A DNA stretch of 64,000 nucleotides, taken from the NCBI GenBank assembly GCA_021810905.1, contig JAJZQH010000003.1, positions 1,897 through 65,896 on the forward strand, given 5' to 3'. The position numbers were made by a program, and so were the translations under genes. This document shows, one piece after another, positions 5,879 to 64,000 of this stretch; positions within the stretch are counted from its first letter, which is position 1; every line of letters starts with the position of its first letter. The notes under the pieces were generated by a model. The model saw nothing but the letters and a program-made list of their open reading frames with translations. It had not been told where the DNA came from and did not search any database. This stretch comes from a bacterium (GTDB taxonomy: Bacteria > UBA10199 > 2-02-FULL-44-16 > JAAZCA01).

Positions 5879-7294
5879 TCAGATGGACCGACCAATATTC
5901 CTCTTCATCATTGTTGAAAATCGCGAAAGTCCATCCTTCCAGATTTCGAAAATCTCCTGCTCGTCGAGATATTCTGTTCTGGTCACGGATGGCTGATCTT
6001 CTCGCCAGCTGTCAAAGTTTTCGCCAATAATCGTCAAATGATAGCGTTCGAAATTATGGTAGAGGTCGGTCCCCGGATAAGGCGTCGTGATATAGTACTC
6101 CACGATATCCGCGAGCCCCTCTTCGAGCAGCTTTTCGGCATAGGCGATCGTCCGGTAGGCGGTATCCCTCGATTCGCCAGGCAGCCCAACCATCCAGTAA
6201 AGGAGGACATTCAGCCCGGCATCCTTGGCCATTTTACAGGATGCTCTGATCTGCTCGACTCGAATTCCCTTCCGGATGAGATCGAGTAATTCCTGGTTCG
6301 CACTCTCCGCGCCGTACTTGATGAGCCGGCAATTGCCCTCATGCATCTTTCGGAGGATTCGGGGGGTCACAAGATCGCAACGCGTCTGAGCGATCCATCG
6401 AAAACCCCGGTTCCGCATCTCCATTCCAAACTCCTCCACATAGGAGGGATTCGTCGTGAATGATTCATCGCCGACATAAAGCAGATCTATGTCAAAATAT
6501 TTTCGTAGAAGTTCCGCCTGCGTTACGGTTCGCTCCATACTCTGATACAACGGTTTTCTCCCCTTCCAGATCGTGTCCGCACAATACGCACAGTTATAGG
6601 TACAGCCCCTCGACGTATAGATCCGGGCGAAAGGAATCTGACCGCGATAGATGTCGTTCGGTATGAGATGATATGCCGGCATAGGGAGACGATCGGATAT
6701 GATCGCTTCCTTGCTGAATGGATTTACATTGATCTCACCATCACGTTTCCACGAGATTCCCGGGATACCTCTAAGATCTCCGCCATCATGGAGGCACCGT
6801 AATAGATCTGGCAGGATGAATTCGCCCTCCCCTCTCACAACGATATCGATATCCTCCTCTTCCAGGCATGAGCGATCCGTATAGGACACATGTGGTCCGC
6901 CAAGAACAACGAAGACATCTCGGCCCAGCACTTTTTTGACCAATCGGGAAACGCGAACGGCAACGCTGAAACTATTGGTAAAAGGCGACATGCCAACCAC
7001 ACGAGATGTGACCTGGCTGAGTTCCCTCGCAATGGCATCATAGTCGATGTCGCATCCGGAATAAGATGTGAGATCCAGGACATCTGCGGTCAAGCCTTCG
7101 TGCTCAAGGGTTCCCCCCAACGCGGCAATCCAAAGCGGGAGCTCCTTGATGTCGTAGATCGGGGCTTTTACGAATTTTCCACCGATTCTCCGTTCAAAGA
7201 AATCCCAGTAGACATCATAAAACGCGCTCTCCTCTTTATGAATGAACGGTTTCGCGATCAGCGGAAGCTGGATAAACGTAAAATCACTGTTCAT
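5879..7294 (-). CDS. B12-binding-domain radical SAM protein (class B rSAM, putative methyltransferase)
   Basis: 471 aa. CxxxCxxC cluster motif in YTSRGCTYNCAYCAD about 230 aa in, preceded by an N-terminal Rossmann-like (cobalamin-binding type) domain. ATG at 7294 overlaps hypF stop (ATGA). Confidence 0.8.
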   Translation of the reverse strand: MNSDFTFIQLPLIAKPFIHKEESAFYDVYWDFFERRIGGKFVKAPIYDIKELPLWIAALGGTLEHEGLTADVLDLTSYSGCDIDYDAIARELSQVTSRVVGMSPFTNSFSVAVRVSRLVKKVLGRDVFVVLGGPHVSYTDRSCLEEEDIDIVVRGEGEFILPDLLRCLHDGGDLRGIPGISWKRDGEINVNPFSKEAIISDRLPMPAYHLIPNDIYRGQIPFARIYTSRGCTYNCAYCADTIWKGRKPLYQSMERTVTQAELLRKYFDIDLLYVGDESFTTNPSYVEEFGMEMRNRGFRWIAQTRCDLVTPRILRKMHEGNCRLIKYGAESANQELLDLIRKGIRVEQIRASCKMAKDAGLNVLLYWMVGLPGESRDTAYRTIAYAEKLLEEGLADIVEYYITTPYPGTDLYHNFERYHLTIIGENFDSWREDQPSVTRTEYLDEQEIFEIWKDGLSRFSTMMKRNIGRSI

Positions 7295-10675: not shown

Positions 10676-10867
10676 TTCCAAGCCGCCTATCAATAAAAGA
10701 GCAACGATGGTGCCAAATTTCGCGAGTCACCGGCAAAGCCAGAGATTATACGGTCCGCACAAAATAAGCCCTTCGCAAACATAGTGAGCACAGTGTTACA
10801 CATGCAAAAAAAAAGCAAGGGCAATACAAATGAATTCATATCCCAAACCTTACAGGTCGAAAAGTTA

Positions 10868-35480: not shown

Positions 35481-35671
35481 GGCAATCCTCCTGGGCAAAA
35501 ACTTCACAATGCTTATAATACAGCAAAGGACGTGCCATTGCGGCAGAAAAAAAAGACAACTGTAATATCAGCAGGTTGTAGAACTCTCGACCCTGGCGGG
35601 ATCACCATCAAATTGAGAATCAGGGCTGCCGGCATTGGATTTTTGACTGATAAATCGGACCGCTCTTCGCC

Positions 35672-60368: not shown

Positions 60369-61657
60369 TTTTCATCCTCCTTCAGAGGCGCGCCGACCGC
60401 GCGTTCGAGGTCGGCAAACGCCTGGGCCGCATCCACTCTAGCCCTTACGTACATGAGCTGCGCGTTGGAGAGGCTGCGGATCGCGTCGACGACGCCCAGA
60501 AAATCGCCGTTGCCGGACGCGTACGCCTCGCGCGAAGAGGCGAGCAACACCCGCGCGCGCGGCAGCACGGTGGCGCCGTAGATCCTCGCCGTCTTCTGCG
60601 CTGCGTTGATGCGCGCATACGCGATCTTCACGTCCGATTCAGCCTTTAACACCGCCGAATCCTTGAGCGACTGCGCGCGTTCCAGCATCGCCTTTGATTC
60701 CTTCACTCCAAATCGCTGTTTGGAGAACGACCATAGAGGCACGGTGATGCCGGCTCGGCCATACCATGCATTCAGCACGCCGGCCGGATTGTCCATGTAA
60801 CCGAGCCGCAGCGTGAGGTCAGGGCCGTACTGGGATTTGGCGAAAGAGAGCTTCGCCCGCTGGGAAAGTATCTCGCTATCCGCTTCAGCGACCTCGGGCC
60901 TCTGCTCCCTCGCCTTTGCGACGAGCTTCTCCACGCCCGCCACATCAGGCGGAGGTGGAGGCTCCGCGAGCTTCACTGAAGGATCGAGAGGTTTTGCCAT
61001 GAGCTTCGAGAGCTCCGCGATAGCGGCGAGGCGATCCTGTTCGATGATCGCGATCTTTCCTTCGATGTCGCCCAGCTCCACGGATGCGCGGACTGGCTCC
61101 GAGACAGGGCCCTTCAAATTTGCATAGGATTCTTCAGCCGAGCCCTTGCCCTGATGGAAGATCGCAAAGGCCTCGTGCTCGATCCTCTCCTCCTCGGAGA
61201 GGCGCCACAGATCCAGGTATGCGCGCTTTACCTGGCGCACGAGTTCCTGCGCCGCGGTCTCCTTGCGCGAGAACGCCGCGTCGGCCGCGCGCTTCTCAGC
61301 CTTGTAGCCGTAGACGAGCTTGGCTGGGAACGGGATCTGTTGCTCACCCATGTACTGTATGGTGCCCTGGGTCACGTCCGCCGTGTTGATCGGCACGCCG
61401 ATGAAATCGACCATGAACTCCGGGTCAGGCGGGCTCGCAGCCTGCGGCGGGCGCGCGCGCGCGGCATCCAGCTCATGCCCCGCGGAGGCGAGGTCCGGAT
61501 TCTCCGCAAGCGCCGCGGCGATAGCGCTGTCCATCGTGAGCGTCTCATCGACGCGGGCCGCACCGCCAGAGGCGGCAGCAAAAGCGAGCGCCATCAACAC
61601 GGCCACGGCTGATGAAACGAGTCTCATCGACAAAAGAGCCTTTCGCGAGGGTGACAA
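60365..61657 (-). CDS. cusC: Outer-membrane efflux protein (TolC/CusC family)
   Basis: Signal peptide. Two TolC-like repeats. Overlaps cusB start by 4 nt. Confidence 0.8.
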   Translation of the reverse strand: MSPSRKALLSMRLVSSAVAVLMALAFAAASGGAARVDETLTMDSAIAAALAENPDLASAGHELDAARARPPQAASPPDPEFMVDFIGVPINTADVTQGTIQYMGEQQIPFPAKLVYGYKAEKRAADAAFSRKETAAQELVRQVKRAYLDLWRLSEEERIEHEAFAIFHQGKGSAEESYANLKGPVSEPVRASVELGDIEGKIAIIEQDRLAAIAELSKLMAKPLDPSVKLAEPPPPPDVAGVEKLVAKAREQRPEVAEADSEILSQRAKLSFAKSQYGPDLTLRLGYMDNPAGVLNAWYGRAGITVPLWSFSKQRFGVKESKAMLERAQSLKDSAVLKAESDVKIAYARINAAQKTARIYGATVLPRARVLLASSREAYASGNGDFLGVVDAIRSLSNAQLMYVRARVDAAQAFADLERAVGAPLKEDEK

Positions 61658-61833
61658 TAAGTGAATTTATAATTTTTTTTGACCGAAATGTCATTATCGA
61701 ACAATTAAACAGCCCCAATCCCGCAAGACTCGTTCCATCGCTCCTTACGAGGCTACGGCAATAGATTGTAGCTGGTGAATGGTGCTGCGAAACGCAGCAG
61801 CGGTGCATGTGCTTGAGCGTACTCTCATATTCG

Positions 61834-62283
61834 TCACCAGAATTCTGGCTTATGAAACGGGCCGTGACGGTCCTCCAAGTTTGGTGAAAACTGAGAGACC
61901 TGAAGAACGCCTTGTCTGATCTTTTTATAAAACGTCGCATACGCGAGAAGTGTTCGGCTCGGGTGTCTATGAGGATTCAGTACGCCGACTCGTTTTCCGA
62001 GCTCCTTTGTCGTGATCCTTATGACCTCGGCAAGATCGGAATCGTTTGAGACGATGACAGCCGTATCGAATCTGTCCTTGTACGCATCGTTGAGCATGTG
62101 AACGGCAAGATTTACATCCGAACCTTTTTCCTCGGTTCGGATGACGCGGACGTATTTCGTTTTACCGCACTCCTTTTCCGCCAGCGGCATCATAACGGGA
62201 TGCGAAAGAAAGTGACCCAATATGATGGAAAGTTGAACCCGTCGATATAGACGCTTGTCCTGCACGGGGATTTGATAAAGCAA
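61834..62283 (-). CDS. NYN/LabA-like nuclease domain protein, apparently N-terminally truncated fragment
   Basis: KGSDVNLAVHMLNDAYKDRFDTAVIVSNDSDLAEVIRI matches the central/C-terminal NYN (PIN-like) block. The canonical N-terminal VFIDxxN strand is absent. Confidence 0.45.
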   Translation of the reverse strand: MLYQIPVQDKRLYRRVQLSIILGHFLSHPVMMPLAEKECGKTKYVRVIRTEEKGSDVNLAVHMLNDAYKDRFDTAVIVSNDSDLAEVIRITTKELGKRVGVLNPHRHPSRTLLAYATFYKKIRQGVLQVSQFSPNLEDRHGPFHKPEFW

Positions 62284-63179
62284 AGGCCGCTTGGAGCGGC
62301 CTCGCGCCCTGCGCCGAAGCGACAGGGGTGGTATCTGAAATTATGATAGCCTTGAGTCCTTCCATTGTCCATGCGGAATTTCTTTTGCATCGAATCTCTC
62401 TCGGCTGTCTGTCGATTCAATTAACAGCAAGGCGCGTGCCAGATACGCGCTGATTGCAACTCCTTGAAAGTCAGCTGATTTATTTTTCGATATTCGGATC
62501 GACTGCAGTGAAACGCAGCAGCACTGCACGAAAACTGGGCAGTTGATCAAACTGGTCGCAATTTGCGACCGGTAGGTTCCCCGCCCTATACAAGCCCCCC
62601 CCCCGCTTGCCTATGGAGTCATTTTTATCCATATTTTTCAATCATATAGCCCGGATTTTCCCTTGTCGCGCTCCTTATAATTATGCTACTTTACCGCAAC
62701 TTGTTCATCCTATCATTATAATGGGGGCACGCAGCATCATTCTCCCCCTTTATAAGGGGGAGTTAGAGGGGGTAGATCCGAGTGAATACAGGGTGCACAG
62801 CGGTGCTCCTCGCGCGAAGCTGGGTGCGGCGGACTCCGTGCTCCGGCAAGTTGCTGCGGAAACGATTTCAGCTCTTCCCTCGTCGCTGGCGCACTTCGCT
62901 CGCTACTCGTCGCCAAAAAGCCGTTGGCGTCATTCGCGACTTGGAGATCCTCCTCTGTCGGCTTCCAAGTCGCGACGCCAATCGGCTTTTTAGCTCCTCA
63001 TACGCTCGTCTCGTAAACGCGCCTTTTACGCTCCTCCGGGAAGAGCTGAAATCGTCCCCGCAGCACATGAACTTCGCACACGGGCCGCACGAACGTAGCG
63101 TTCCGAGTAGAGGCACGCGGCGTGTTGTGCAAGGTTGTTCGCCTTGTAGGTATAAAGAAAGACTTGCCTTGGAGGCAAT

Positions 63180-63572
63180 ATGTCTGAATGGCAACAACAA
63201 TTAATCGCAGACACATTTCAAAATTATCAAAATATGCTAATGCAAATATCACTCTTGCTTGTAACTGGCGGTGTCATCTTACTTTTGACTAAAGAATATA
63301 CAAAAAACTGGAAAATTTTAGGCGTCCTTGGAGTTGCGGTTGCCGTCTTCGGTATCGTCATCAATCATCATATTTATTCACTAATAATTGAGAGGTTAAA
63401 GGTCATCGCGGATAACAAAGGCAGCATTCTATTAGAAACACAACCAAACCAATGTCTGAGCCTTGGCGGCTGGTACGTTTTTCAAATTATTTGTAATAGC
63501 ATTGCCGCAATTATTTTATTCATCATTTTGTTAACGGCAAAGATTGATAGAATCGCCGCCCAAAAGAGGTAA
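63180..63572 (+). CDS. Small membrane protein, low-GC (island gene)
   Basis: 130 aa, three hydrophobic helices. AT-rich codon usage distinct from the rest of the window. AGGCAAT-ATG context. Confidence 0.4.
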   Translation: MSEWQQQLIADTFQNYQNMLMQISLLLVTGGVILLLTKEYTKNWKILGVLGVAVAVFGIVINHHIYSLIIERLKVIADNKGSILLETQPNQCLSLGGWYVFQIICNSIAAIILFIILLTAKIDRIAAQKR

Positions 63573-63574
63573 GT

Positions 63575-64000
63575 ATGGTCAGCCGGATTATTTATATCTG
63601 TGCATTCATTTCATTGGTGGCGCTTACTCTCCAAGCTAGTGAGAAGAATTTTTCAAGTAATTCATTTTTATCTGGAGGCTGGACGCAGCTAGACGGTGCC
63701 AGGGTTGGATTTGATGACATCGTTTCGTTAAAAGACATGCAATTCATTCATTCTGACCGAGAGAGTGTCTCATTGGCGAGTACAAATGCAGGCGCGAAAA
63801 TGAAAAAAGTTGAGATAAAAAATAATTTTGACGGAATATTGACATTCTTCAATTTTTTTATACCTGATGATAGCAAAACGGTGAGAATCTTATTTAGCGA
63901 TACTTGGCCCCTCGCAGATATTTATGTGGATGACCACGGCCCTTTTGGAGGTACTAGTAAAAGCGGTATTGGTTTTATTCACGAGCAGTTTGAGTTAGGA
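63575..64000 (+). CDS. Secreted hypothetical protein, 5' partial view (runs off window end)
   Basis: ATG 63575 3 nt after previous stop. Signal peptide MVSRIIYICAFISLVALTLQA. Open to end of window. Not in ORF track because no stop inside window. Confidence 0.4.
   Translation, partial: MVSRIIYICAFISLVALTLQASEKNFSSNSFLSGGWTQLDGARVGFDDIVSLKDMQFIHSDRESVSLASTNAGAKMKKVEIKNNFDGILTFFNFFIPDDSKTVRILFSDTWPLADIYVDDHGPFGGTSKSGIGFIHEQFELG

Follow-up and report, generated by a model that had tools for sequence, protein, structure and literature searches.

The site recognized by NtrC has the form TGCACC-N5-GGTGCA, and an enhancer geometry such as the one described below is typical of NtrC-type sigma-54 units. 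HEC-09, a candidate defence family for which PADLOC holds a profile, protected against none of the phages with which it was challenged (Payne et al. 2024, bioRxiv 10.1101/2024.01.29.577857). Further systems inviting comparison are the type III toxin-antitoxin modules, the large helicase-nucleases Hhe, ProA and Mokosh, and genomic islands that group defence genes. We analyzed a 64,000-nt stretch of bacterial DNA from contig JAJZQH010000003.1 (referred to below as the window), concentrating on positions 61651-64000 at its right-hand end, with the metal-efflux gene cusC at the left of the interval. NCBI contig DAHVYM010000026.1 (GCA_027327785.1), which encodes a 130-amino-acid (aa) protein of the interval, continues the window rightwards. 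The extension sequences L001 and L004 reach 10-15 kb past the window end, for a total of 79 kb covered (L004 coordinates are window coordinates minus 54320). We consider it likely, at a probability of roughly 70%, that this interval forms the left margin of a ~12.5-kb variable island of defence-type genes beside cusCBA, that a family of short repeats in it represents sigma-54 enhancers, and that its gene for an NYN-domain RNase is a pseudogene.

The preliminary description of this DNA had drawn attention to two direct repeats, each embedded in a short hairpin and together flanking the NYN gene. The exact 13-mer GAAACGCAGCAGC is present at 61789-61801 and 62510-62522, 721 nt apart; the second copy lies where it had been reported, and the first is displaced by 3 nt from the reported 61786-61798. 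Taken by itself, this identity is weakly significant, as at least two matches occurred in 3 of 100 shuffles, and the repeat extends to 25 nt at 84% identity. The two 13-mers are part of two members of a four-copy family, a 40-nt motif whose palindromic core is TGCWGCGTTTCGCWGCA, with all copies on the plus strand: A (61783-61822), B (62503-62545), C (L004 17144-17187) and D (L004 19782-19830).

All four copies have a sigma-54-type -24/-12 site, with the GG and GC dinucleotides kept, at a distance of 41-106 nt. A random position has such a site within 130 nt 5.4% of the time, giving a probability of about 8e-6 for four of four copies by chance. The core of copy A (TGCTGCGTTTCGCAGCA, 61783-61799) lies 46 nt from the site TGGAACGAGTCTTGCG (61722-61737, minus strand, two mismatches), which faces cusC (ATG at 61627) and the cusCBA operon. 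Copy B comprises the core TGCTGCGTTTCACTGCA at 62504-62520 together with a second TGC-N11-GCA site, and is located 63 nt from a perfect sigma-54 promoter, TGGCACGCGCCTTGCT (62426-62441, minus strand; -24 GG and -12 GC correctly spaced from 62441 to 62426), which faces the NYN gene. The sites adjoining copies C and D face a remnant of an ORF6N gene and a 170-aa gene followed by acetyltransferase and methyltransferase genes, respectively. The motif copies lie ~80-130 nt upstream of the expected start of the -24/-12 promoter. Two further perfect TGGCAC-N5-TTGCT sites are present in the window, at 10700-10715 and 35522-35537 (both minus strand), and have no 17-bp core nearby.

The same pairing of motif and promoter was observed elsewhere. 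Loci L011, L014 and L018 contain intact NYN genes from three other metagenomic organisms, and alignment of their upstream regions with the window revealed two conserved blocks in otherwise unalignable DNA. The first is the promoter, conserved as TGGCACACGCCTTGCT, TGGCATACCACTTGCT and TGGCACGCGGCTTGCT in the three loci. The second is the motif, 42-64 nt upstream of the promoter; its core TGCWGCGTTTCGCWGCA is matched exactly in L011 and L018, and L014 has a degenerate version. Thus, the palindromic site accompanies the promoter at an enhancer-like distance in all four copies here and in L011 and L018. Because other loci keep the pair upstream of their intact NYN genes, we read the 40-nt element as an enhancer; it would be the predicted binding site (upstream activator sequence) of a sigma-54 activator protein, and we infer that such a protein binds the motif and that the adjoining promoters fire. 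Similarities to NtrC-type units are the -24 GG/-12 GC promoter (TGGCAC-N5-TTGCT) and the 17-bp TGC-N11-GCA palindrome with, in copy B, a second site ~21 bp off. The locus differs from such units in that the core TGCWGCGTTTCGCWGCA could not be assigned to a known activator, and in that the element sits on mobile defence-type genes. Our literature search on sigma-54 in connection with NYN proteins found nothing relevant. If the enhancer interpretation is true, mobile defence-type genes bring their own sigma-54 promoter and enhancer, leaving their expression dependent on an activator of the host, which is a little-studied route for wiring defence genes into host signalling.

The open reading frame (ORF) at 61834-62283 (minus strand), which had been described as an N-terminally truncated NYN gene, does exist and matches PF01936 only at profile positions 71-138, short of an intact NYN domain; its match to the PADLOC HEC-09 profile (E value of 5e-22) spans positions 75-202 of 203. 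The N terminus was not lost by truncation, since the original sequence (MDNG...RYHPCRFGAGREAA...VYIDGFNF) survives in another frame at 62372-62229. The lengths of intact homologues range from 207 to 244 aa; the nearest have 241-244 aa and 71-77% identity. In DNA alignments, window positions 62379-62232 correspond to L011 positions 5988-6135, and window positions 62232-61833 to L011 positions 6328-6727. Thus, 193 nt are missing at 62232, and the frame is shifted. By this alignment, the HEC-09-like gene is a pseudogene (61834-62372, minus strand) produced by a 193-nt internal deletion with frameshift, with the C-terminal part at 61834-62232 and the N-terminal part, including VYIDGFNF, at 62233-62372. 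The deletion inactivated the nuclease gene; the promoter, the proposed enhancer and a structured RNA leader (see below) are intact. The locus thus resembles HEC-09 by its profile match and by the presence of an NYN/PIN-like RNase domain, and differs from it in that the window copy is a pseudogene. NYN homologues are frequent in E. coli, Klebsiella, Serratia and Salmonella on tiny plasmids of the ColE1 type (3.5-5.7 kb), as nearly the sole cargo gene.

A uniform base composition would have spoken against an island. The guanine-plus-cytosine (GC) content is not uniform. In 500-nt windows, it is 0.61-0.64 in cusC, 0.49-0.54 at 61750-63250 and 0.39 from 63250 onwards. The whole window has a GC content of 0.568, and the 500-nt windows left of 61650 have a mean of 0.571 (standard deviation, 0.039; minimum, 0.47). 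The preliminary description of an AT-rich region beginning with a sharp fall after cusC applies to 63180-64000, with a GC content of 0.382 (~4.8 standard deviations low), and not to 61651-63179. The latter segment has a GC content of 0.512, only ~1.5 standard deviations below the rest of the window, and is therefore neither AT-rich nor outside the range of the window. The true compositional step is located at 63180. To its right, the GC content is 0.38-0.46 until ~69300, 0.45-0.54 until ~74800 and host-like thereafter (window-equivalent coordinates). The proposal of a horizontally acquired island is supported by a low-GC block of ~6 kb that runs past the window end, by non-core genes in this block and by neighbours of the defence type. 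From cusC rightwards, the island would consist of a decayed NYN (HEC-09-like) RNase module; a 0.8-kb noncoding spacer holding palindromes, a C10 tract and a 214-nt hairpin; the apparently foreign low-GC block, with a rare pair of genes for putative membrane or secreted proteins and a gene for a predicted 1,536-aa helicase-nuclease; and, past the window, HigBA, duplicated ORF6N genes and small genes without assigned function.

The largest structure of the interval, absent from the preliminary description, is an imperfect 214-nt hairpin at 62852-63065. Its 28-nt outer arms are 93% complementary, its inner arms lie at 62915-62947 and 62958-62990, and its GC content of 0.58 is host-like. Our leading guess, held at somewhat less than even odds, is that the hairpin is a foldback element of the miniature inverted-repeat transposable element type, or the scar of an inverted duplication at the junction of the low-GC block, and not a functional RNA. 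This is consistent with the terminal inverted arms, with the position of the hairpin within ~115 nt of the GC step and with the lack of any matching Rfam family. It also agrees with the ends of two independent Logan contigs within the hairpin, at 62903 and 62997, and with the similar folding of the two strands once composition is allowed for, each strand folding far better than its shuffles (z of -11.85 for the minus strand and -10.67 for the plus strand). The minus strand is 20 kcal/mol more stable, but we claim no strand preference because minus-strand shuffles are also more stable. Several observations speak against a transposable element or scar. The 79 kb contain no second copy, and scans of viral and metagenome contigs for exact words of the arms gave chance matches inside coding sequence only. 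No target-site duplication was seen in the flanks, and the symmetry fades outward to 62806-63112 instead of stopping sharply. Finally, the minus-strand RNA folds into a single uninterrupted rod containing 7 G-U pairs, versus 2 on the plus strand. A blastn search with the spacer and the hairpin returned only a 36-nt palindrome match in plasmids and no phage match, and the three ORFs overlapping the hairpin have no match in Pfam. Readings of the hairpin as an attC site, an inverton, a retron or a single-strand promoter were judged by eye, and none was favoured. No R-box motifs of an attC site were seen, the interior forms a palindrome of its own, nearby genes include none for a reverse transcriptase, and the stem contains no -35/-10 boxes.

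Several points weigh against the interpretation of the interval as an island edge with sigma-54 enhancers. Six-frame translations of the window, L004 and the NYN loci contain no GAFTGA or Walker A signature of an activator; as no activator gene was found in the 79 kb or in the NYN loci, the regulator would have to act from elsewhere. The promoters of copies A, C and D have two mismatches each, and only that of copy B is conserved in other genomes. It is unusual for a metal-efflux operon to have an enhancer in common with defence-type genes. The island was recognized from its composition and gene content; integrase, tRNA gene and att site were not found, and the boundaries were set by composition only.

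Two other explanations of the 40-nt motif were weighed. It is improbable that the motif is an extragenic palindrome akin to repetitive extragenic palindromes (REP), or a terminator hairpin, unconnected with sigma-54. The palindromic and intergenic nature of the motif would fit such an element, as would its unexceptional single-strand folding (z of -0.8 to -3.3) and the lack of an activator gene nearby. However, the other 61 kb of the window contain no further copies, the hairpins are not followed by a U-tract, the placement of the motif with respect to the -24/-12 sites is fixed, and other organisms have conserved the motif along with the promoter. A motif word scan of a collection of genome contigs gave a single chance match, in a coding region of a Muribaculaceae.

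Even lower odds attach to the explanation advanced in the preliminary description, according to which the two GAAACGCAGCAGC hairpins are end scars (att sites or terminal repeats) of a mobile element that delivered the NYN gene. Two direct copies do bracket this gene, and the two more copies deeper in the island are what tandem insertion at one att site could give. Yet L011 and L018 each contain a single core, which lies upstream of NYN, 42-64 nt from the conserved sigma-54 promoter, and does not flank the gene. In addition, every copy on the contig adjoins a -24/-12 site, and copy A lies in the promoter region of cusC. No integrase, transposase or recombinase domain was on record for the genes called across the 79 kb; a tRNA scan of the 64-kb window was likewise negative. 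The element-end explanation therefore fails on copy number, on the single fixed position in other genomes and on the lack of a recombinase. The least probable proposal, that the C10 tract (62595-62604, plus strand) is a slipped-strand phase-variation switch, has in its favour a 10-nt homopolymer that is the sole run of at least seven G or C residues in 64 kb, but the tract is noncoding and outside any promoter spacer, lies 50 nt beyond the enhancer of the dead NYN gene and 575 nt upstream of the next ORF (that of the 130-aa protein), has no counterpart at the same position in L011, L014 or L018, and was read as C10 alike in the NCBI contig and in the Logan assembly of SRR13189623, which may derive from the same reads.

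A further conserved feature of the NYN gene is a structured leader of 60 nt (62275-62334, minus strand; covariance model match of 86.9 bits) located between the promoter and the VYIDGFN codons. Hairpin 1, CCCUG-U-CGC/UUCG/GCG-CAGGG, is closed by the loop UUCG. The second hairpin resembles a terminator: GAGGCCGC and GCGGCCUU pair around a loop that varies freely, and UGCUUUAU (UGCUUU) follows. The nucleotides of the leader are nearly invariant across six loci, in contrast to the variable third codon positions of the coding sequence that follows. Among seven leader sequences, 99% of the cells in the paired columns form pairs, and 6 of the 18 pairs have changed on both sides, versus 0.9 in shuffles; with the partners slid as a control, only 38-55% pair. 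Copies are located in L011 (6033-6092), L014 (1908-1967), L018 (6039-6098), L023 (9931-9991), L025 (9944-10002), L026 (445-508) and L029 (1135-1195, minus strand). Gene callers translate through the leader in the 241-244-aa homologues, whereas a stop codon separates the leader from NYN in L025 and NYN starts after the leader in L023. In a Paenarthrobacter plasmid, the covariance model built on the leaders identified an independent copy (42 bits) on the other strand from NYN; there it forms a stand-alone gene resembling that of a small RNA, convergent with NYN, with a TTGACA promoter and a perfect terminator of its own. Weaker matches lie upstream of NYN in plasmids of Serratia, E. coli, Xanthomonas, Phaeobacter and Thiothrix. 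Visual inspection of 16 distinct NYN loci showed a terminator hairpin with a U-tract in about 14, located 20-70 nt ahead of the start codon. In 4.6-kb plasmids of E. coli (L031, ~330-480), NYN is preceded by four hairpin units in tandem and by a canonical terminator. Rfam 15 holds no family for the leader; scanning 61000-64000 gave just a chance match to a long noncoding RNA, and scanning ten NYN loci gave RNAI of ColE1 replicons and nothing else. Literature searches on the leader and on type III toxin-antitoxin systems with NYN found nothing relevant.

These data leave room for a possible, though doubtful, interpretation in which NYN genes and the small structured RNA form a two-part toxin-antitoxin or defence family resembling type III systems, with an NYN/PIN-like nuclease; in this lineage, it would stand under a sigma-54 enhancer common to other island genes and cusCBA. 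The module may run from a promoter through one to four hairpin units and an intrinsic terminator to the RNase gene, and the window would contain a decayed copy with the RNA and the promoter intact and the nuclease deleted. Such a module is described neither in Rfam nor in the literature searched. An autoregulatory leader is a simpler alternative to the toxin-antitoxin layout. Should the RNA be an antitoxin or an autoregulatory target, this would explain the retention of NYN on tiny plasmids and might explain the lack of phage protection by HEC-09 in tests.

Besides the C10 tract and the 214-nt hairpin, the spacer contains the two palindromes of the preliminary description, both present at the reported positions. 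The first, GGTCGCAATTTGCGACC (62554-62570), has the form GGTCGCAA-T-TTGCGACC (8+1+8) and belongs to a family with the core TCRCAAWTTGYGA. Two versions of 41-43 nt are located upstream of the ORF6N copies (L004 16264-16306 and 16844-16884), four copies downstream of NYN in L014 (2612-2770) and one upstream of a helicase gene in L005 (9786-9812). Palindromes of the TCRCAAWTTGYGA family thus adjoin genes for NYN, ORF6N and helicase proteins, and the organisms concerned number at least three. They are possibly operators or REP-like elements. The second palindrome, CTCCCCCTTTATAAGGGGGAG (62742-62762), is a hairpin of the form CTCCCCCTT-TAT-AAGGGGGAG, with 9-nt arms and a 3-nt loop; a 36-nt stretch including it matches an intergenic region of a Pseudanabaena plasmid at 94%.

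The two ORFs reported in the low-GC block, at 63180-63572 and from 63575 past the window end (both plus strand), are present as described. The first is the first gene of the block and encodes the 130-aa membrane protein; the second ends 141 nt past the window and is followed by the gene for the 1,536-aa protein. The 188-aa product of the second ORF has a hydrophobic helix at its N terminus and a body predicted to be all-beta. Homology searches, which might have exposed these ORFs as core genes, identified their products as orphan or near-orphan proteins. The 188-aa protein has no homologue besides itself among 5.8 billion proteins searched, and its predicted structure was too poor for a fold search (predicted local distance difference test score of 38.6). 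For the 130-aa protein, the 1.84 billion representatives searched yielded two distant homologues (32-35% identity); a 130-aa protein of L012 was considered as a relative and proved unrelated. Both homologues precede a 170-179-aa protein with ~20% identity to the 188-aa protein and conserved Cys and Gly-Lys positions. Because both have such a matching partner, the two genes form a rare conserved pair, found in all three instances known in the databases searched (window 63180-64000 on to L001 10962, L009 and L010). In L010, no helicase gene follows the pair; the pair and the helicase are therefore separate modules.

According to Pfam, the 1,536-aa protein contains AAA_11, AAA_12, a weak REase_MTES_1575 match and Zn_ribbon_Top1, and is predicted to combine, in one chain, an Upf1-like superfamily 1 (SF1) helicase with a restriction-endonuclease-like domain and a zinc ribbon. 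PADLOC matches (MkoC, with an E value of 6e-39, PDC-S37, MkoA and Hhe) are all confined to the helicase core, and the NCBIfam scores are 120.2 bits for ProA (cut-off, 1500) and 89.7 bits for Hhe (cut-off, 2000). Pfam detected no PLD domain, which Mokosh type II combines with a COG1112-type helicase. Because the PADLOC matches cover the core only and the NCBIfam scores fall far below the cut-offs, we call the protein a relative, not a member, of Hhe, ProA and Mokosh. Its own family is patchily distributed across phyla and includes many proteins of ~1,520 aa in bacteria of the candidate phyla radiation, archaea, Syntrophaceae, Pedobacter and others, with 45-53% identity over the full length. The nearest relative (53% identity) is encoded by a solitary gene amid housekeeping genes, an unrelated setting, and no relative was found among species-representative genomes. 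We infer a role in defence for the helicase-nuclease, and the other low-GC genes would act likewise.

Right of the helicase gene, Pfam detected HigB and an HTH_3 antitoxin (HigBA). The ORF6N gene matches the PADLOC candidate PDC-S05 and is accompanied by a duplicated fragment. Further right are several genes without assigned function, followed by acetyltransferase, methyltransferase, phage-type metallopeptidase and ABC transporter genes. A 378-nt duplication with 87% identity covers the 3' region of ORF6N (L004 15540-15905 and 16356-16724). A second repeat, CCGTTCTCAGTATCTCCGTTTTCCGGATC, has four copies in the island (L004 14790-14830, 15630-15668, 16440-16470 and 19755-19776), the last directly before motif copy D. 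The phage-type metallopeptidase (L004 22080-22451) is 85% identical in protein sequence to that of L011 (4127-4501), which carries an intact NYN gene; judged by these sequences, the organisms of this contig and of L011 appear to share island parts.

Compared with type III toxin-antitoxin systems (ToxIN, CptIN and TenpIN), NYN loci of many lineages (about 14 of the 16 distinct loci judged by eye) have the same order of promoter, structured RNA unit or units, intrinsic terminator and endoribonuclease gene, represented in the window by one unit and a terminator-like hairpin. They differ in that the nuclease is NYN/PIN-like and does not have the ToxN/AbiQ fold, and in that the window copy has a single RNA unit. 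The helicase-nuclease shares with Hhe, ProA and Mokosh (MkoC) the design of a large single protein in which an Upf1-like SF1 core (AAA_11, AAA_12) precedes a nuclease-like domain, and departs from them by far sub-cut-off scores, by the lack of a PLD domain and by the weak REase_MTES_1575 match and Top1-type zinc ribbon at its C terminus. The island itself is ordinary. Although it differs from other defence or variable genomic islands in that integrase, tRNA gene and att site were not found and its edges are known from composition only, it resembles them in grouping a helicase-nuclease, a HigBA toxin-antitoxin pair, ORF6N and an NYN RNase around a block of foreign composition, and in containing pseudogenes and internal duplications.

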